From a virus (lineage: Duplodnaviria > Caudoviricetes): a stretch of DNA of 64,000 nucleotides. A model generated the notes under the pieces. It was not told the origin of the DNA, ran no database searches, and worked only from the letters and a program-made list of their open reading frames with translations. The DNA is taken from IMG/VR virus record IMGVR_UViG_3300028832_000096. The stretch is one strand, 5' to 3'. Each line of letters begins with the position of its first letter. Position 1 is the stretch's first letter. Below, piece after piece: positions 1 to 41,521 of this stretch. The position numbers were made by a program, and so were the translations under genes.

Positions 1-891
1 ATCATATGTATAGCCTAGATTGAATTTAATTACAGCGCTAATGATTTCATCTAATGACTGTCTTCCGAGGTTGCGAATATTTGTAAATGGCTTATCATAG
101 TTGACGATATCATGCAATGTGTTCAACTGGCTTCTCTTCAAGCAGTTATACGTCCTGATAGAGAAATCCATATCCTCAACAATGATGTCTGAAAGAGCTA
201 CACGTTTTACAGGTTCAGGTGTAGGCTTAAGTAATCTAACAGCTTCAAGTCCCGCAGCATACTGCTTGAGCTGCTCGTTTTCTTCCTTGAGCTGCTCGAT
301 AGTAGTTTTTGATGCAAACAACTCTTTCAATGCAAAATGAACTTTGCGAAGAGCTTTAAATTCAATCTGTCTTACTCTTTCTCGTGTAAGTCCTAATTTC
401 TTACCAGCTTCCTCAAGTGTAAGGCTATCTCTATAACGCATTTCGACTACAGCCTGCTCACGGTAATTAAGTCGGTCTCTGAATATTCTATCGAATTCAA
501 AAGGAGTAACATTGCGATAACTCATATCGAATTCGTCGTCATTGTTAATGTCTTCAAAGTACGACATAATAGCTACACCTGCAAGGCTGTAGTTTACAGT
601 AGCGATTATGAAATTGTAGGGAAAAATATCTTCGAGTGTCTGAGTGTGGTCAACCATCAATCTTGCAGCGACCACATTAGAGCAAATCTTTTCAAACTTT
701 GCACTAAAAAGCTTTTCAAGAGCCTTCTGAGCCTTAGGGTCAGGCAAACTAACTAACTGAAGCCATTTCTGAATTGCTGCTTCTGACATTCCAAGAAGTG
801 CAGCAAAATCTCTATATGTGAGATTATTATTCTTGCAATAAAGCCTGATATTGTTGGCCAGACACTCTTTCTGTTCTTCGGGTTTATACAT
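1..891 (-). CDS. XRE-HTH / sigma70 region 4 / RNA polymerase alpha-CTD fusion protein (3' end runs off window)
   Basis: Hand translation from ATG 891 (GGAGG RBS upstream) stays open to position 1. It reads LANNIRLYCKNNNLTYRDFAALLGMSEAAIQKW (XRE), LTLEEAGKKLGLTRERVRQIEFKALRK (sigma 4.2) and VEDMDFSIRTYNCLKRSQLNTLHDIV...IRNLGRQSLDEI (alpha-CTD). Confidence 0.88.
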   Translation of the reverse strand, partial: MYKPEEQKECLANNIRLYCKNNNLTYRDFAALLGMSEAAIQKWLQLVSLPDPKAQKALEKLFSAKFEKICSNVVAARLMVDHTQTLEDIFPYNFIIATVNYSLAGVAIMSYFEDINNDDEFDMSYRNVTPFEFDRIFRDRLNYREQAVVEMRYRDSLTLEEAGKKLGLTRERVRQIEFKALRKVHFALKELFASKTTIEQLKEENEQLKQYAAGLEAVRLLKPTPEPVKRVALSDIIVEDMDFSIRTYNCLKRSQLNTLHDIVNYDKPFTNIRNLGRQSLDEIISAVIKFNLGYTYD

Positions 892-1318: not shown

Positions 1319-1504
1319 TCAATATCCTCTATCTGACGGACTAAATAAATTGTAATATTCCGGAGGTAAATTTCCTTTATTATCCGGTACGCCTAATTCA
1401 CGAGCACATTTACTGCATACTAAAGGCATTTCATCATATTCCATATTGCACCTAGTGCATTTGTATGTATGATTCTTTGTATATTTGAATCTAACTTTTG
1501 TCAT
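1319..1504 (-). CDS. small zinc-ribbon protein
   Basis: Start corrected to ATG 1504 (AGGAGG RBS); CTRC...CSKC. Confidence 0.7.
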   Translation of the reverse strand: MTKVRFKYTKNHTYKCTRCNMEYDEMPLVCSKCARELGVPDNKGNLPPEYYNLFSPSDRGY

Positions 1505-1704
1505 AGCCCACCTCCTAGATAAAAGAAGCCATTTATTCGATATAGGATACAGAATAAATGGCGAAAGACTGTATCCGAAGGTTCGCTTATTTTGAAAGGA
1601 GCGGTTATAGGGAATGGAAAGAAACAAGACCCATAACCACTGTCGAGCAAGCCTACAAGAGCAACAAGTAAATAGTGTTATTAACAGAAGTCTTCTGCAA
1701 CAAC

Positions 1705-1791
1705 TGGTGGGAAAGGTAGGAGTCGAACCTACCGAGTCATCTAACAACAGATTTACAGTCTGTCCCGCTACCAGCTACGGACTACTTTCCC
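1705..1791 (-). tRNA. tRNA-Tyr (GTA)
   Basis: GGGAAAG/CTTTCCC acceptor, CTGTAAA anticodon loop, long variable arm, GTTCGACTC T-loop, encoded ACCA. Confidence 0.93.
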
Positions 1792-1794
1792 ATA

Positions 1795-2230
1795 AGGTAG
1801 GAGGCCTAACCTCCCTTGTCGGAGTTATCAGTCATTCTCCGAGTTCCCGCTAGCCGGCGACTGAGTACCTCCGGGCACGGTGTTCAGGTAAAAGAAGCAT
1901 CGGGCACATGTCGGCTTGCCAGTTGACATAAGGACTGTTACTACCTTAGTCGATGCTTGAGTCGGGAGCCTACTTTCCCCTGCAAGGCCCAACCTTACTT
2001 GTCTGGCATCTCACCAGAGTTCCCTCTGTCTGATTTGTATACCGCAAGTATGAGGTGGGTGGGCAGTTGCAACTCCCCAGTGCGGTTTTGCTACGATAAG
2101 ACCTGCCAAGTCTCTGTCTCTTGTATTCGTAGCCATACTCTGTATCTTGCTCACCGTTCCAAGATAGTATAAACGCCGATAAATTTCGTGTATCGGTCAC
2201 GGCTCGTTTTGGCAGGAGAGAGCGACCCCT
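1795..2230 (-). ncRNA. unclassified structured RNA(s), including a long-range pseudoknot
   Basis: No credible ORF. Many perfect helices: AAGCATCG/CGATGCTT, TCGGAG/CTCCGA, and CCTGCCAA/TTGGCAGG crossing GCTACGA/TCGTAGC. Confidence 0.55.
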
Positions 2231-2368
2231 TGGTGAAGGGTGATAGGAGTCGCACCTATCAGTTGATAACATTCCTAGCCTAACGCAATCCCCTCAAAAA
2301 TTTCTTCTTGATTCGCTACTGCGTAGTTATCGCTATAGGATAACCCGTCTACTTTGCGGCAACCCTTC
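2231..2368 (-). ncRNA. tRNA-like RNA with anticodon arm replaced by a long hairpin
   Basis: GAAGGGT/ACCCTTC-A-CCA acceptor, CCG/CGG D-stem, GATAGG-TGCGACT-CCTATC T-arm; no 7-nt anticodon loop. Confidence 0.75.
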
Positions 2369-2530
2369 ATGTTAATGCAGATTTGTTTGTCGTAAACCTC
2401 TTAGGTCGCGCTCACCCGTATGAATACTGTTAGAAGTTCTGCTTCTCCTAGTGACTGACTCTTATCGCTGGCTGTCACCTACTCCCGCCAAGGTTTTTCT
2501 AGAGAGGTACTTGGAACTACACCTCATTAG

Positions 2531-2630
2531 TGAAGTAGGTTAGGACTCGAACCTAACATGTCCGTGTCTTTTCGATTTAAGGTTCTTGCACGAACTAACG
2601 CCATAGTGTCTGCCGTTCCACCACTACTTC
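2531..2630 (-). ncRNA. tRNA-like RNA (Leu-type D arm, no canonical anticodon arm)
   Basis: GAAGTAG/CTACTTC-A acceptor, GTGGAACGGCAGACAC D-arm, GTTAGG-TTCGAGT-CCTAAC T-arm. Confidence 0.75.
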
Positions 2631-2849
2631 ATATTTGAGGGTTCACCTTGTATCACCCACAGGTTCTCTTGTTTAACTACCGTCTTTAACCACCTTATCA
2701 ACAAGCAAGTTACAGTGGTGCAATAGTGACCGCTCACCTAATAGGCTTCTTTGTGTTTTTACTCCTCCATCCCACTATCGACTTCGAAAACCTCTAACGA
2801 GGAAATGAGTTGAGTTTTTGAAGAGGTACTCCTTTGTTAAACTCTTAGG

Positions 2850-2962
2850 TGAAGTAGGTTAGGACTCGAACCTAACAGGGAAATCTCCCGATTTCCTGCC
2901 TCCTATGTCATCTTAAATAAGATGCAACTCGGACGCTGTGTTTACCTATCCACCACTACTTC
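2850..2962 (-). ncRNA. tRNA-like RNA, paralogue of 2531-2630 with a different middle
   Basis: Acceptor and T-arm identical to 2531-2630; extended CATCTT/AAGATG arm and GGAAATC/GATTTCC variable arm. Confidence 0.75.
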
Positions 2963-3115
2963 ATATCTAATGTGAGTGTAAGAATAACCTAACCACGACT
3001 GGTTCGACTTGATTATTCCCATTTGTCGGTAGCACTCACAACTACCGCTGTCCTATTATCGTTGACAGGTACGCCTAACCATTATTAACGCCTTTGCGCT
3101 ACAGGGTATAGGAAT

Positions 3116-3267
3116 TGGAGACGGGAGACTAGATTTCTACTAGCAATTTCTAGGAGCTACCCCAGCCGTGTTTCACTATACCAGCTACGTATAGTGGCAA
3201 TCGCTGTATTCCATCATCGATAGCGCTACTCGACAACGGGTACAGATTACCTTTACACTACTCCCTC
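3116..3267 (-). ncRNA. degenerate tRNA-like RNA with two hairpins inserted in the D-loop
   Basis: GAGGGAG/CTCCC(G)TC-T-CCA acceptor, GTGT/ACAC D-stem, GCTAG-TAGAAAT-CTAGT T-like arm. Confidence 0.55.
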
Positions 3268-3304
3268 TGGTGATAAGTTTTTAAGAGAGAACCTACCAAA
3301 CTCT
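3268..3304 (-). ncRNA. 37-nt H-type pseudoknot ending in ACCA (copy 1)
   Basis: AGAG-TTTGGTAGGTTCT-CTCT-TAAAAA-CTTATC-ACCA. Confidence 0.65.
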
Positions 3305-3471
3305 AAGGTATAATGATGTACTATGGCACATCCGAAGATGTAAAATCCACATTCATTTTGTGCGTACATCAGGCACTCACCTGACCAGCGGAGTGATATA
3401 GGTCATTGTTCCGTGACATTAGCCTTTGTCCGAACATCTCCATCTCCTAGTGGCTAACTCAATGGAGTGGT

Positions 3472-3508
3472 TGGCGATAAGTTTTTGAGAAGAACCTACC
3501 AAACTTCT
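3472..3508 (-). ncRNA. 37-nt H-type pseudoknot ending in GCCA (copy 2)
   Basis: AGAAG-TTTGGTAGGTT-CTTCT-CAAAAA-CTTATC-GCCA. Confidence 0.65.
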
Positions 3509-3564
3509 GAATATAAGGCACATCTAAACGATTTCATAATGTATAAAATTGCTGTAAGTGCCTT

Positions 3565-3594
3565 TGGTGAGAGGTACTTGGGATTACACCTCTC
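3565..3594 (-). ncRNA. 30-nt acceptor-stem microhelix ending in ACCA
   Basis: GAGAGGT-(12-nt loop)-ACCTCTC-A-CCA, with 0-nt junctions on both sides. Confidence 0.6.
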
Positions 3595-3713
3595 TGGTTT
3601 AGGGCGGGTAACATAGACATAACGCTTGTCATTTCTGATACCCTGTGTCCACCCGTTCATCAAACACGTTACACTGACTTGCACTGTCAGGATTTGCGAG
3701 TGTACAACCCTAA
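3595..3713 (-). ncRNA. acceptor-closed structured RNA ending in ACCA
   Basis: TTAGGGT...GCCCTAA-A-CCA; starts immediately after the previous CCA. Confidence 0.65.
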
Positions 3714-3750
3714 TGGTGATAGGTTTTTAACAAGAACCTAACAAACTTGT
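3714..3750 (-). ncRNA. 37-nt H-type pseudoknot ending in ACCA (copy 3)
   Basis: ACAAG-TTTGTTAGGTT-CTTGT-TAAAAA-CCTATC-ACCA; the first stem covaries relative to copy 2. Confidence 0.65.
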
Positions 3751-3786
3751 AGCTTTCATTGCCCAGGATAGCTATAACTTGGGCCT

Positions 3787-3863
3787 TGGTGGACAATCAA
3801 GGACTCGAACCTTGGACCAACCGGTTATGAGCCGGTAGCTCTGACCAACTGAGCTAATTGTCC
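3787..3863 (-). tRNA. tRNA-Ile2 (CAT, lysidine type); tRNA-Met less likely
   Basis: Canonical cloverleaf GGACAAT...GGCTCATAACC...ATTGTCC-A-CCA; resembles Bacillota tRNA-Ile(CAU). Confidence 0.88.
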
Positions 3864-3960
3864 ATTGGTGTTGGTGTGACCTATAGATATTCTTTGTGGT
3901 CAACTTTTCTCCAACTGTGGTCGTATGATATCCTACGATTTAGTCAGATTCTCTAACCCC

Positions 3961-4050
3961 TGGCAGGCGGTTTCCTATAGGTATTTGCATGCTATTGTTT
4001 CTCCGATTATCTCGTTGAGCTCTACAAGATAATAAGATTCCCTACCGCCT
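3961..4050 (-). ncRNA. acceptor-closed structured RNA ending in GCCA
   Basis: AGGCGGT...ACCGCCT-G-CCA with an internal ATTATCTTG/CGAGATAAT hairpin. Confidence 0.65.
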
Positions 4051-4176
4051 TGGTAATAGATAGGCTGTTCCTCGAACTCCATTTAACTACTGCCCAGCCG
4101 TTACGCTAAGCTCTTTCGGAATTGGGATTCGTCCAAGTCTCCCCACGCCCTAAGAGGTCCGTAGCACCTATCTACT
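4051..4176 (-). ncRNA. acceptor-closed structured RNA ending in ACCA
   Basis: 10-bp closing stem AGTAGATAGG/CCTATCTATT-A-CCA, starting right after the tRNA-Leu CCA. Confidence 0.65.
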
Positions 4177-4264
4177 TGGTGCGAATAGTCGGATTTGAAC
4201 CGACACGGATTATTAGTCCGACGGATTTTAAGTCCGTTGCGTCTGCCAATTTCGCCATACTCGC
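4177..4264 (-). tRNA. tRNA-Leu (TAA)
   Basis: GCGAGTA/TATTCGC acceptor, CTTAAAA anticodon loop, long variable arm, encoded ACCA. Confidence 0.94.
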
Positions 4265-4282
4265 ATATTATAAATTGTCAAG

Positions 4283-4582
4283 TTACAACATCAAATCTGT
4301 ATACAATTTCTGTAAATCAGATAAGATTTCTTCTAGTTTAACCCTATCAATTTCTTTATCATTTAATGCTTTATCTAAATCGTTGATACATTCTTTATAA
4401 CGATACGCAAATCTATTAATAAGAATTTCTGCTTTTTCTTCATCTTCTTTAACGAGCATATCAAACAAATCAGCTGATTCTCTACCTAACTTATCATTGA
4501 TGATTCGTTCAAACTCTTTCTTGTCATCAGAATCTTTGTTGGTAAAGAACTTATCTCCGTCAGATGTTTCAAGATAAAACAT
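4283..4582 (-). CDS. hypothetical protein
   Basis: 99-aa ORF with an RBS, coupled to the upstream gene. Confidence 0.75.
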   Translation of the reverse strand: MFYLETSDGDKFFTNKDSDDKKEFERIINDKLGRESADLFDMLVKEDEEKAEILINRFAYRYKECINDLDKALNDKEIDRVKLEEILSDLQKLYTDLML

Positions 4583-7171: not shown

Positions 7172-7801
7172 TTAATACAAGAAATCTCTAAATATTAATT
7201 GACCATTGTTATGTTCAACAAACATCTTTTCTTGCTTATATCTTGCAGGCCTAACTGAATTAATAAGCCGCATGATATCATTCCAAGTTTTACCTGACCT
7301 CAATACATTGAACTGAATTGGATATCCACTAGTGCCGTCTTTGTCATAACACTTGTATTCAATGTTGTTTTGGTCAAGTACTTCACATAATTTTTGAGCA
7401 TCTTCTGAAGCGGTAGAAGGATACGTAAACTTAAGAATTACTTCCTTGCCGTCACTACCTTTAATACCAGATATTCTAGGTTGATAGATTTCGTAACTTA
7501 TGGAATTATCACCACGTATAGAACTTTCTTTTGGAATGAAGTAGCCACTAACTTGATAAGATTTACCTGACTCTAAATTATAGGGGTTATCAGGATTAGC
7601 TACAGTGCTATCATATATTTTACTAATCAGACACTTGTTGCCATCAGCATCTTTAAACTTTACAAATATATGATAATCACCTTTGTAATAATCGCCATCA
7701 AAAGAATATTCATAAACAAGAGATTTAGTTTCCCTATCTAACTCAATTATCTTGTTATCAAGTCCGTAGAATTTCTTAGATGATTTGATGTAGCGTTTCA
7801 T
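7172..7801 (-). CDS. leader-bearing putative internal head protein
   Basis: Starts MKRYIKSS. Confidence 0.7.
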   Translation of the reverse strand: MKRYIKSSKKFYGLDNKIIELDRETKSLVYEYSFDGDYYKGDYHIFVKFKDADGNKCLISKIYDSTVANPDNPYNLESGKSYQVSGYFIPKESSIRGDNSISYEIYQPRISGIKGSDGKEVILKFTYPSTASEDAQKLCEVLDQNNIEYKCYDKDGTSGYPIQFNVLRSGKTWNDIMRLINSVRPARYKQEKMFVEHNNGQLIFRDFLY

Positions 7802-7805
7802 ATAT

Positions 7806-8264
7806 TTAATCCTTTAGCTTACTTCTTTTAATACCATTCAAGTACTTATCACTAGTATGAGTGCTCTTAGCAGCTTCCATCGTTACACCTAAGATATTTA
7901 CTTTAAATGTATGTTCTTCATCAATGTCGTAAAAAGCTGAAAATTCTAATGGAATATAAGTATCATCTACTGAAAAAGAAGATGGAAAACAACTATCCCA
8001 TTCATATCCTTTACTTTCAAAGTACCTTATTAGTTCTTTGCAATAATCTTCTGGAGTATTATTCCAATCTCCAGTTTCTTCCATCATTCTTTCTCGCTCT
8101 TCTTCAGGTATCCAGCGAATGAACATATCTATATCTGAATCTTCATTTTGCATACCATACGCATAGCTACCGGTAACAATTACTTTATCCTTAATATCAT
8201 TAAGGATTCTTACTAGAGCTGCTTTAGAGCTTAATTTTGATGATGCATTTATATATAGTTTCAT
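7806..8264 (-). CDS. Pol-beta-superfamily (MNT-like) nucleotidyltransferase with leader
   Basis: IVTGSYAYGMQNEDSDIDMFI (hGS...DxD motif); starts MKLYINASS. Confidence 0.8.
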   Translation of the reverse strand: MKLYINASSKLSSKAALVRILNDIKDKVIVTGSYAYGMQNEDSDIDMFIRWIPEEERERMMEETGDWNNTPEDYCKELIRYFESKGYEWDSCFPSSFSVDDTYIPLEFSAFYDIDEEHTFKVNILGVTMEAAKSTHTSDKYLNGIKRSKLKD

Positions 8265-8267
8265 ATA

Positions 8268-8468
8268 TCAATAAACAGAAATAATAATCCAACCAGCGTA
8301 ATTATAATCAGGCTCTATTTCCGCAACTTCTCTATAAAGCACACTATCATCACTATTATATAAATCTCGTGCTTCACCTTCAAAATACTGCTCGTTCGAT
8401 ATATTATCAAACACTGCAATACTTGTAGATAATGGAATATATTTAGTTATAAATTCCTTTAGTGACAT
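8268..8468 (-). CDS. hypothetical protein
   Basis: 66-aa ORF with AGGAG RBS. Confidence 0.65.
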   Translation of the reverse strand: MSLKEFITKYIPLSTSIAVFDNISNEQYFEGEARDLYNSDDSVLYREVAEIEPDYNYAGWIIISVY

Positions 8469-8515
8469 ATTAGTTCTCCTGACCTTTTACAAAGTAATTA
8501 AGATATTTATTCCAA

Positions 8516-8731
8516 TTATTTATGTCTCTGGAAATAACTCCACACTACTCCCCAAGCTACTTCGTCCAAAGTTTCGTCATAGAAGTTGCTCGCCATATCC
8601 CTTGTCACTTCAACCAATTCTGGTATAGCTGATTGCGGTATCGTCTTATTTAATCCAAAAGAAGCCATATGTTTAAGTGCACTAATTATCTCACTATCAC
8701 TGTATCTTGCAGCTCTAATGTATCGCTTCAT
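8516..8731 (-). CDS. leader-bearing small protein
   Basis: Starts MKRYIRAA. Confidence 0.7.
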   Translation of the reverse strand: MKRYIRAARYSDSEIISALKHMASFGLNKTIPQSAIPELVEVTRDMASNFYDETLDEVAWGVVWSYFQRHK

Positions 8732-13185: not shown

Positions 13186-14130
13186 TTACTTTAAGTATTT
13201 TTCAAATGAAGCTAAATATTCGTTGATGCTACTAGCGCAACCCTTTAAAGTTCTATAACCATTACCTTTTGTAAATTCAGCTAACTTAACAGGGTCAATA
13301 GAACCGTCTTCTTTTGTGCAAGCTTCAAGACCTTCGAGCATATCTTTATAATAGCTAATTGCCCAACGAAGATTTCCCATAGCCTTATCACCGCTGTAAG
13401 GAATTTTTCCTTTACGGACATCAATAGAATCAAACAATCTTGATTTGCAAGAATTGATTTTATCGTAATAATCATCAAGCGTTTTCTTAACTTCGTCAAG
13501 TCTGCCCTTAAGCCTATCAGGGAATCTTTTATATAATCTGGAATATAATGTCTCAGGATTAGGAATCGTATAACCTGACTTATCACGATTGCCAGGCTTA
13601 GACCATTCAGCGTCAGCGTGACGATTGCTTGTGCGTTCCCACTTATGCGTTTCGTTATTGTATGCTTCAGGAAAATCGGGAACCTGACCCATGTATTCAG
13701 GCTTAGAATCGCTCCAGCGCTTTTCATATCTAGGGTCAACATAACCTCTACCTTCACGAATATCCTTGCGCAAAGGAGCTGTCATATAAACTGTATCAAT
13801 GATGTGTTCCTGAATACGGGCTTTAGAAGCTGTAGCTAATGCTCTATACCTATCTCCTGCAGGAATGTGTCTTCCATAACCACCCATTACTTTGGGAACA
13901 TATACATACTGACCAGCAGGTGTCTTATAAGATTCACCCCAACGAGTTTCTTCCTTGTAAGTATCATCTAATAAATAAATCGGAACGCTATCAGGCTCCT
14001 CTACTTTTGAAAACTTAGCCTGCGACATTGCGTAACTCTGATTAAGGTAGCTGAGGGCTTCCTTACCGGCTTCGCTCTTTAACCAACTCGGCATTGACGA
14101 GTCATACGATGCTCTGATGTATCTCTTCAT
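13186..14130 (-). CDS. leader-bearing putative internal head protein
   Basis: Starts MKRYIRAS at ATG 14130 with an AAGGAG RBS. Confidence 0.75.
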   Translation of the reverse strand: MKRYIRASYDSSMPSWLKSEAGKEALSYLNQSYAMSQAKFSKVEEPDSVPIYLLDDTYKEETRWGESYKTPAGQYVYVPKVMGGYGRHIPAGDRYRALATASKARIQEHIIDTVYMTAPLRKDIREGRGYVDPRYEKRWSDSKPEYMGQVPDFPEAYNNETHKWERTSNRHADAEWSKPGNRDKSGYTIPNPETLYSRLYKRFPDRLKGRLDEVKKTLDDYYDKINSCKSRLFDSIDVRKGKIPYSGDKAMGNLRWAISYYKDMLEGLEACTKEDGSIDPVKLAEFTKGNGYRTLKGCASSINEYLASFEKYLK

Positions 14131-14193
14131 AGACAATCTCCTTCGGGAATATAATTATGATAAACAATCTAATAATATATAGTTATCGACATT

Positions 14194-21807: not shown

Positions 21808-22179
21808 CTATCTGTAACGCTCTTCGGAGTTTAAACGCATCTGCTTTTTAGCCTCTTCAGCAGAAAGTGATGATATGTAATTATATAACTTCTTAAATTC
21901 TTCCGGAGTATATTTTTGATACTGTACATGGTATGTTTCGTATCCATACTTAGTCTTTGATTCTTCATCCGGCAGTAATAAAGTTACATTCAGATAATAA
22001 TGTATTTCTCCCGTTTTTGCATCTACGAGAATTTTTCCAGTATTCAACTCGATGATTATCCCATTATCAAGAGTTATCCTATCACCTGAATTAAATTTCT
22101 TAAATTGATTTGCTTTAGGTGCCGAACCATCTTTGTTAAATGATTTAAGCTCACTGCTTGCGTTTACATATATCTTCAT
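21808..22179 (-). CDS. leader-bearing protein
   Basis: Starts MKIYVNASS. Confidence 0.75.
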   Translation of the reverse strand: MKIYVNASSELKSFNKDGSAPKANQFKKFNSGDRITLDNGIIIELNTGKILVDAKTGEIHYYLNVTLLLPDEESKTKYGYETYHVQYQKYTPEEFKKLYNYISSLSAEEAKKQMRLNSEERYR

Positions 22180-22197
22180 GCTTTTATCCTCGTAGTA

Positions 22198-22692
22198 TCA
22201 ATATTGATTAAGCTGTTCTAACACTATTTTAACAATAGCATCAACCTCTTTATTAGTTAATTCACATATACCAGAATTGCATAATGCAGTATAAGTCATC
22301 TCCTGCATTTCTTCATCAGTATAATTATTGTTTAAAAAATCTGAAACTAAGGGAGATATAACATTTTTAAATATATAAGATAATGTTTTTGTGATACAGA
22401 AGTCGGAAGATAACATATATGAAAGAATAGCATCTTGCGCAGCTGTTTTTCTATCAAATTTTCTATAAACTTCAGGACTAGCAATTACTATAGTATCGGG
22501 ATTAAAGTCACAGGGAAATACAGTGTTAGGATATAAAAATCCTTTAACGTCGTCAGAACCTCTCCACTGAATGAACCCGCGTCTAATTGCCGATAAGATA
22601 TTATAATCACCAGATAACTGAGGAAAATACCTCTTCAAACAATTAGTTAACAATGTATCACTATTAGTTGTAGCTTTTACATAAATCTTCAT
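22198..22692 (-). CDS. leader-bearing protein
   Basis: Starts MKIYVKAT. Confidence 0.75.
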   Translation of the reverse strand: MKIYVKATTNSDTLLTNCLKRYFPQLSGDYNILSAIRRGFIQWRGSDDVKGFLYPNTVFPCDFNPDTIVIASPEVYRKFDRKTAAQDAILSYMLSSDFCITKTLSYIFKNVISPLVSDFLNNNYTDEEMQEMTYTALCNSGICELTNKEVDAIVKIVLEQLNQY

Positions 22693-22952
22693 AAATCATA
22701 TTCCCCTTTATTTAACTGCTTCTTCAAGAATTCAATAGCTTTTTCAGGACTATTGAATACCTCATCAATACCCTTCTTATCATTATATACAGTAGTCTTC
22801 TTACCAAAATCTCCGCTATAACTGCCGGATTTTCTATCGTATAAACGACCAATTTCAATAAGATAGTCGCCTACTTGCATAGAACCGCCGTTAGCCTTAA
22901 TAGCTGCTTCGGTTATCATTATATCTTTGGAAGATTTTACATATATCTTCAT
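22689..22952 (-). CDS. leader-bearing protein
   Basis: Starts MKIYVKSS. Confidence 0.75.
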   Translation of the reverse strand: MKIYVKSSKDIMITEAAIKANGGSMQVGDYLIEIGRLYDRKSGSYSGDFGKKTTVYNDKKGIDEVFNSPEKAIEFLKKQLNKGEYDL

Positions 22953-41302: not shown

Positions 41303-41521
41303 TTAATCGACAATCTCAGAACCATAGCCATCTACGACATCTTCCCAAGCTGTCGAACCATTCCATTCGACTTTAGAATACCGATGTGTTGTATTATGAG
41401 GATTTCCATCCTTATCATATTCCATAAGTATAAAATAATCACCTTCCTCTGAAAGCTCTATATGGCCTCCATCTTTAAGTGTCGCCTTGTAAGTTTTACT
41501 TGCTTTTATGTATCTCTTCAT
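41303..41521 (-). CDS. leader-bearing small protein
   Basis: Starts MKRYIKAS. Confidence 0.75.
   Translation of the reverse strand: MKRYIKASKTYKATLKDGGHIELSEEGDYFILMEYDKDGNPHNTTHRYSKVEWNGSTAWEDVVDGYGSEIVD

Follow-up and report, generated by a model that had tools for sequence, protein, structure and literature searches.

Do short repeats ending in RCCA within a viral tRNA cluster fold into RNA structures of their own and, if so, to which known structures are they related and what might they do? The question is raised by a 64-kb stretch of DNA from a jumbo phage of the cattle rumen (the window), whose genes include a Gp23-type capsid gene and a prohead protease gene. An earlier note had described three 37-nt units, each composed of two stems with their loops, an A5 linker and a terminal RCCA. 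Units with exactly these parts, referred to as knots K1 to K3, are present on the minus strand within an operon of tRNAs and other non-coding RNAs (Table 1). Three canonical tRNAs were identified in this operon, all with an encoded CCA; the one with anticodon CAU was assigned to Met by ARAGORN, Ile2 being plausible.

Table 1. Coordinates in the window of the tRNA/ncRNA operon, its knots and related features
Feature	Position	Strand	Description
tRNA/ncRNA operon	1705..4264	minus	ORF-free, GC-raised, 2.6 kb; many units with NCCA ends
tRNA-Tyr(GUA)	1705..1791	minus	last tRNA of the operon
Further knot	2488..2525	minus	after a second CCA-less tRNA-like RNA
Knot-like unit	2812..2846	minus	stems of 5 bp (stem 1) and 4 bp (stem 2) with an A-rich loop; lies a few nt behind a tRNA-like RNA without CCA
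Knot K1	3268..3304	minus	4-bp stem 1, UUU loop, 8-bp stem 2 (including two U-A), A-rich loop 3; tail ACCA; adjoining CCA-ended unit starts at 3267
Knot K2	3472..3508	minus	5-bp stem 1; tail GCCA
Hairpin	3565..3594	minus	7 bp, ACCA end; in relatives a knot takes this slot, before unit 3510-3563
Knot K3	3714..3750	minus	5-bp stem 1; tail ACCA
Diverged knot	3750..3785	minus	topology as K1-K3; directly after the tRNA(CAU) CCA; overlaps K3 at base 3750
tRNA, anticodon CAU (Met or Ile2)	3787..3863	minus	CCA encoded
tRNA-Leu(UAA)	4177..4264	minus	first unit of the operon
Candidate promoter element	4273..4284	minus	also precedes the cluster in related phages; putative function

Structure of the knots

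The pattern common to K1-K3 has three matches in the 64-kb window and none in 100 shuffles, and a descriptor of topology only finds K1-K3 as its sole matches in the 64 kb, with 0-2 matches in shuffles. With model R1, the three knots score 45.2, 46.9 and 47.2 bits, respectively; K3 has a U.U at the second pair of stem 2. Folding of single sequences is unremarkable (z about -0.7 to -0.9) and uninformative, so that the case for a pseudoknot rests on covariation.

Pattern scans of viral, metagenome and genome collections yielded about 60 close and about 75 distant homologs. Pairing was tested on 77 distinct intergenic matches, counting only positions that the patterns left unconstrained. The outer pair of stem 1 is formed in 69 of the 77 (shuffle mean 20.9, maximum 34), with all four Watson-Crick types present, and three unconstrained pairs of stem 2 are formed in 57, 55 and 45 (shuffle maxima 39, 34 and 35). 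For 19 matches within long ORFs, pairing falls inside or at the shuffle range. Two gap-free alignments have 94% and 98% of their cells paired, a level reached in 0 of 500 shuffles; in each, six pairs are changed on both sides and no slid register comes near. Kinship inflates such counts, the carriers nonetheless being very different viruses. Within the clade of the window, the U-A and A-U pairs of stem 2 do not vary, which is largely imposed by the patterns and was left out as evidence. The test showed that both stems covary across unrelated viruses, and K1-K3 are confirmed as real H-type pseudoknots, not products of chance. The stems accept G.U pairs on the sense strand, an indication of RNA rather than DNA.

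The two U's located 5' of stem 1' can pair with the final two A's of the linker, which gives a stem 2 of 8 bp and a loop 2 of 0 nt. Stem 2 is better read in this register, with the UUU loop crossing it. The telomerase pseudoknot contains U.A-U triples and A-minor contacts. By analogy, the UUU loop of the knots would lie in the major groove of the stem-2 U-A pairs and form such triples, while the A-run may occupy the minor groove of stem 1 through A-minor contacts. The UUU and A-run bases are fixed in the patterns, so that the backing for their conservation comes only from matches found by the model alone and from the wcaG motif described below. The knots resemble triple-helix pseudoknots of the telomerase and SAM-II types in their U-rich loop 1 over U-A pairs and their A-rich loop 3; they are, however, much smaller, are without known ligand or template and have triples that are predicted. 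Knots with a hairpin of ~45-50 nt inserted in loop 3 and the RCCA end kept were also seen (L049 3732-3817, L083 11272-11353, L078 1870-1955 and L065 84-169).

A unit of the wcaG type

Weinberg et al. (2010; PMC2864571) counted the wcaG RNA motif (Rfam RF01761) among probable riboswitches. Each half of its consensus runs from a short stem 1 ending in G through UUU, a 5-6-nt stem-2 strand, UU, stem 1' and an A-rich linker to stem 2', and K1-K3 have their parts in the same order. In the authors' alignment the pseudoknot is annotated in the second unit (PMC2864571). A single descriptor finds unit 2 of the wcaG copy of phage S-CREM1 (OP535465), K1-K3, a giant-virus copy and a copy in phage Melnitz-1 (MZ577095), with 0-1 matches in shuffles. 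S-CREM1 and Melnitz-1 are phages in culture, and their knots have no CCA tail. The S-CREM1 copy is located in a tRNA cluster, as are K1-K3. Both the part order and the pseudoknot covariation of a wcaG unit are found in the knots, and K1-K3 are single units of the wcaG type, i.e. of the building block of RF01761.

They are not members of RF01761, since they have no second unit, no central hairpin and no UGGYG tail. In the cyanophage motif, a hairpin connects two units, the 5' strand of stem 2 is rich in pyrimidines and the tail is UGGYG, whereas the knots are single units, purine-rich on that strand, that end in RCCA. RF01761 gave no match to the knots at E<=10 in the window and none above the 42-bit cut-off in relatives; the wcaG model and the knot model do not find each other. 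Reverse-complemented, the UGGYG tail (L262 746-843 and consensus) reads CRCCA, with which the knots end; the tail may be no more than the beginning of the next helix. Two more Rfam motifs, manA and abiF, are located between tRNAs in the cyanophage cluster of S-CREM1 (L262 1216-1568), which suggests that tRNA polycistrons include several orphan motifs as units. The wcaG motif has been an orphan riboswitch candidate since 2010, and its unit can now be treated as a stand-alone fold of 33 nt, an object for experiment.

Distribution among viruses

Among the relatives with the motif are two complete phage contigs, 176 and 467 kb long; in the larger one, all five model matches lie within a tRNA region of 6 kb. 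Up to five or six knot copies occur per genome, nearly all in the tRNA cluster. One relative's contig was found in a Clostridia MAG, a weak hint as to the host. Tail-less knots were also found between the tRNAs of phages and of giant viruses, e.g. in the tRNA cluster of L139, a giant virus with a TFIIS gene. The latter occurrence indicates that no single host factor is needed, and the breadth of carriers favours a self-contained property of the RNA or a universal enzyme (e.g. RNase P) over a host-specific partner. In the same giant-virus cluster (L139 8058-9275) there are some six variants of the knot, besides a structured unit of ~130-180 nt that is duplicated and a tRNA-Lys with an intron.

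Family members share the strand of the nearest tRNA in all cases (34/34 upstream, 45/45 downstream) and mostly that of the flanking genes. In 48 cases the knot begins past a stop codon, at a median of 8.5 nt, and tail-less relatives start 4-14 nt past stop codons. The upstream proteins are major capsid proteins in up to 14 of 45, belonging to five Pfam families. That the fold occurs both after capsid genes of several unrelated families and between phage and giant-virus tRNAs speaks for a function in the processing or stability of RNA. The element is patchy, since no knot follows the capsid genes of Flavobacterium phage FpV4 and crAssphage cr52_1 or the Gp23 gene of the window itself. A readthrough or frameshift signal was rejected because most of the stops are UAA (32 of 48) and the downstream frames are unbiased (13/16/9); the copies in the window, in addition, lie in a non-coding operon.

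Rfam searches of the window at the gathering score and of 1400-4400 at E<=10 returned tRNAs only, and in 29 source entries from related loci none of the families covered a knot in sense orientation. A BLAST search of cultured phages yielded nothing beyond tRNA matches and chance matches. The clade-type pattern had 11 matches in GTDB genomes, seven of them one Streptococcus sequence with a poor stem 1. In a Clostridiales MAG (L105 163-330), a knot lies between a truncated copy of a tRNA-Ala 5' end and the intact tRNA-Ala, an arrangement resembling an integration site.

The RCCA tail

In the rumen clade, an RCCA tail is carried by 54 of 61 distinct copies, with A as the discriminator in 50 and G in 4. 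The main searches did not require this tail. The tailed copies have G-C at 1:72 in 46/54 and U at -1 in 52/54. Outside the clade, NCCA occupies the tail position in only two of the copies found without requiring the tail. The reading of the earlier note, that these are acceptor-like pseudoknots ending in RCCA, holds for the knot and for a conserved tail that emerged unprompted from the searches; it has to be narrowed in that the tail is specific to one clade and the fold usually tail-less. The tail is a local adaptation of the clade that makes the knot resemble the other units of a tRNA-style polycistron. What is new is the RCCA-tailed variant of the wcaG-type unit, of which no description was found in the literature; the fold itself was already known.

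A closed helix ending in NCCA begins after the tail in 25 of the 54 copies, mostly at the next base, compared with 23 of 270 control starts. On the 5' side, 0-3 nt separate the knot from the CCA of a tRNA in L085, L090, L053 and L072. The order of the operon units is shuffled between relatives, and in four or more of these a knot comes first behind the candidate promoter. RCCA itself is not over-represented in the operon of the window (24 occurrences, Markov-shuffle mean 18.7); the signal is its position after helices, not its abundance.

Possible roles of the knots

The reading that we tentatively favour from these sequence comparisons is that the knot could well be a nuclease-resistant module for processing or stability, fitted to the tRNA enzymes of the host and not charged as a tRNA. 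Its CCA tail probably lets the host enzymes that trim tRNAs cut the knot out. The triple-helix knot would act as a fast-folding, nuclease-resistant block that marks and stabilizes boundaries in long viral transcripts, e.g. the 3' end of the capsid message. Cleavage by host RNase P at the following unit, together with 3' trimming, would free a small CCA-ended RNA. The RCCA would also permit a slow RNase P cut in the UUU loop and thereby the release of the upstream tRNA; without this cut, the knot would shield the CCA end of that tRNA from trimming.

Several published findings bear on this module. RNase P cleaves loop 1 of H-type pseudoknots only when they carry a 3' RCCA, favours U at -1 and is inefficient in vitro (PMC12710915). 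The clade copies have the features of such substrates, i.e. an H-type knot, RCCA, G at +1 and an unpaired U at -1 in loop 1, this U following from the fold and the search patterns and therefore not counting as independent support. In Bacillus subtilis, CCA-containing precursors are trimmed by RNase PH and not cut by RNase Z (PMC8097732), so that a stable knot right behind a tRNA CCA needs an endonuclease cut for its removal. No RNase P RNA gene was found in two complete relatives. Against the module, knots that come first in their operon have nothing upstream to protect or release, cleavage in loop 1 would destroy the conserved fold and RNase P is inefficient on pseudoknots in vitro. Furthermore, plain frameshift pseudoknots fail to stop Xrn1 (PMC10321173), and the nuclease resistance of the knot therefore cannot be assumed. 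The authors of the in vitro work (PMC12710915) raised the question whether RNase P acts on pseudoknots in vivo, and the RCCA-tailed knots are natural candidates for such substrates.

The same processing steps are shared by another reading, which differs in the role of the released RNA. The freed 37-nt RNA would be a stable acceptor-end decoy against defences that attack tRNA 3' ends, such as Cas12a3 and CCA-modifying toxins; we consider this possible but doubtful. It is likewise somewhat unlikely, though conceivable, that triple-helix mini-RNAs with a free CCA are released as decoys together with other CCA-ended non-tRNA units, in which the operon is rich. About 12 stacked base pairs followed by RCCA, discrete ends, a knot that is sometimes the first unit of the operon and the presence of up to five or six copies per genome, almost all of them in the tRNA cluster, agree with a decoy. 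The 467-kb relative encodes a protein of 480 aa of the PolyA_pol/CCA-adding family (L263, G001 427913-428284), which also speaks for it. Cas12a3 cleaves minimal substrates made of an acceptor stem and CCA and tolerates stem changes, yet binds them 62-fold more weakly than tRNA (PMC12851939). Most family members lack the CCA, so that a decoy cannot be the original role of the fold. If true, phages would have a counter-defence of a new kind, consisting of RNA only and built from a fold otherwise used by viruses at transcript boundaries.

The earlier note had also likened the knots to TYMV-type tRNA-like structures and to type III antitoxins. As in the TYMV structure and the RCCA-ended substrates of RNase P (PMC12710915), stem 2 ends in a discriminator plus CCA and loop 1 is U-rich. 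A pseudoknotted acceptor helix with an NCCA end, an A/G discriminator and a G-C first pair is what a minimal, aminoacylated structure of this type would offer, and the helix and end are found in 54/61 clade copies. The knots have, however, longer stems, no stacked T-like hairpin and no D-like or anticodon arm, and a unit can begin right after the CCA of the upstream tRNA. They are internal to a DNA-phage transcript, whereas the TYMV structure is located at the end of an RNA genome. G3.U70 and C73 are identity rules of tRNAs. Neither is present in the knots, whose discriminator switches between A and G among paralogs, and no Rfam tRNA-like structure matches at E<=10. Charging is thus quite improbable, and the TYMV analogy is retained for a substrate of RNase P or of CCA-end enzymes while it is dropped for an aminoacylated structure. 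Mimicry of a type III antitoxin (ToxI, CptI, TenpI or AntiQ) is very improbable. Size and H-type topology are similar, ToxI has comparable loop lengths and the A5 run is a target sequence of ToxN-Bt/AbiQ. Nevertheless, the knots are not tandem (start-to-start spacing of 204 and 242 nt), stem 2 has 6-8 bp against 3-4 in ToxI and loop 1 has 3 nt against 1 in CptI/TenpI. The flanks are not conserved, conserved single-stranded tails are missing and the A-tract lies inside the knot. An antitoxin is specific for its toxin, whereas the viruses that carry the fold have very diverse hosts and include some that infect eukaryotes. On these grounds, and with no Rfam antitoxin match in 1400-4400 at E<=10, the antitoxin-like decoy proposed in that note had to be abandoned. 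No ToxN-family gene was detected among nearby ORFs or in two relatives, the control search being equally silent, and a mimic needs none.

Binding of a metabolite or protein would follow from the listing of wcaG as a probable riboswitch (PMC2864571). The genes downstream of the knots nevertheless have no functional theme, an expression platform is lacking, the knots sit between tRNAs and their conserved bases are those expected for base triples. The fold class is that of the SAM-II and preQ1 aptamers; this role is unlikely but worth naming. PreQ1-I riboswitches precede que genes and have a conserved loop cytidine that pairs with the ligand; the 11-nt loop of the knots has no C, their context is tRNA operons and Rfam gave no match at E<=10, and this class was rejected. 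A transcription terminator or pause site, or a DNA site, is distinctly unlikely. The position after capsid genes is typical of terminators and a U-rich tract follows stem 2 in 20 of 60 mRNA-type copies (10 and 7 in controls), whereas none of 44 clade copies has such a tract and no knot was scored as a terminator in the window; the tolerance of G.U on the sense strand speaks against a DNA site. A tiny theta-like ribozyme that would free tRNA or mRNA ends by self-cleavage is the least credible. The knot often begins 0-7 nt after a tRNA end, in the slot of theta ribozymes (PMC10879173), but the gap ranges from 0 to 27 nt across loci. With two stems only, the knot is too short for the double pseudoknot of HDV-like ribozymes, shows no candidate catalytic base and has no Rfam ribozyme match; the theta class itself, in which a nested double pseudoknot begins precisely at the 3' end of the tRNA, was rejected. 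Coremin or xrRNA-C elements are, like the knots, small viral pseudoknots with an A-rich spacer in non-coding regions, but need a 4-nt YGAD loop, a stem 2 of about 3 bp and a downstream hairpin (PMC6546385, PMC10321173). The knots have an 11-nt loop and a stem 2 of 6-8 bp and lack the YGAD tetraloop, the conserved spacer and the downstream hairpin, and this assignment was rejected too.

Other units of the operon and neighbouring genes

The further pseudoknot that the earlier note had placed after tRNA-Ile is present at 3750-3785, albeit with one A.C mismatch in stem 1 and no RCCA. It is not matched by model R1 and has no homolog in the fetched related loci. For the knot at 2488-2525, stem 2 covaries in four homologs (L001, L004, L048 and L071), whereas a homolog search with the unit at 2812-2846 was negative and this unit is a weak candidate. 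Weak evidence at the RNA level comes from bovine-gut RNA libraries: contigs of relatives cover knots and parts of the operon without the flanking ORFs, the two RNA runs matching 6-9% of words and these contigs being uninformative on ends, strand and level.

Several further elements were noticed in and around the operon. The candidate promoter element lies a few bases 5' of the first RNA-cluster unit in L004, L050/L051, L052, L058, L065, L067, L072, L074, L076 and L095, and a second conserved AT-rich box is often found ~10 nt 5' of it. tRNA-like scaffolds with replaced middles and a structured unit of 430 nt (2527-2632, 2846-2962, 2228-2368 and 1795-2227, minus strand) are found again, in changing order, in 4 to 22 related loci and have no Rfam match. 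Just downstream of the operon, an ORF at 1-891 (minus strand, open at the window end) combines an Xre-type HTH, a sigma-70 region 4 and an RNA polymerase alpha C-terminal domain. A small nucleotidyltransferase (NTP_transf_2/Polbeta; 7806-8264, minus strand) is encoded 3.5 kb upstream of the tRNA operon. Finally, many unrelated ORFs (7172-8731, 13186-14136, 21808-22952 and 41303-41521) resemble one another at the N-terminus, where they have a short motif (MKRYI/MKIYV, then xAS/xSS) that is possibly a virion-targeting signal.
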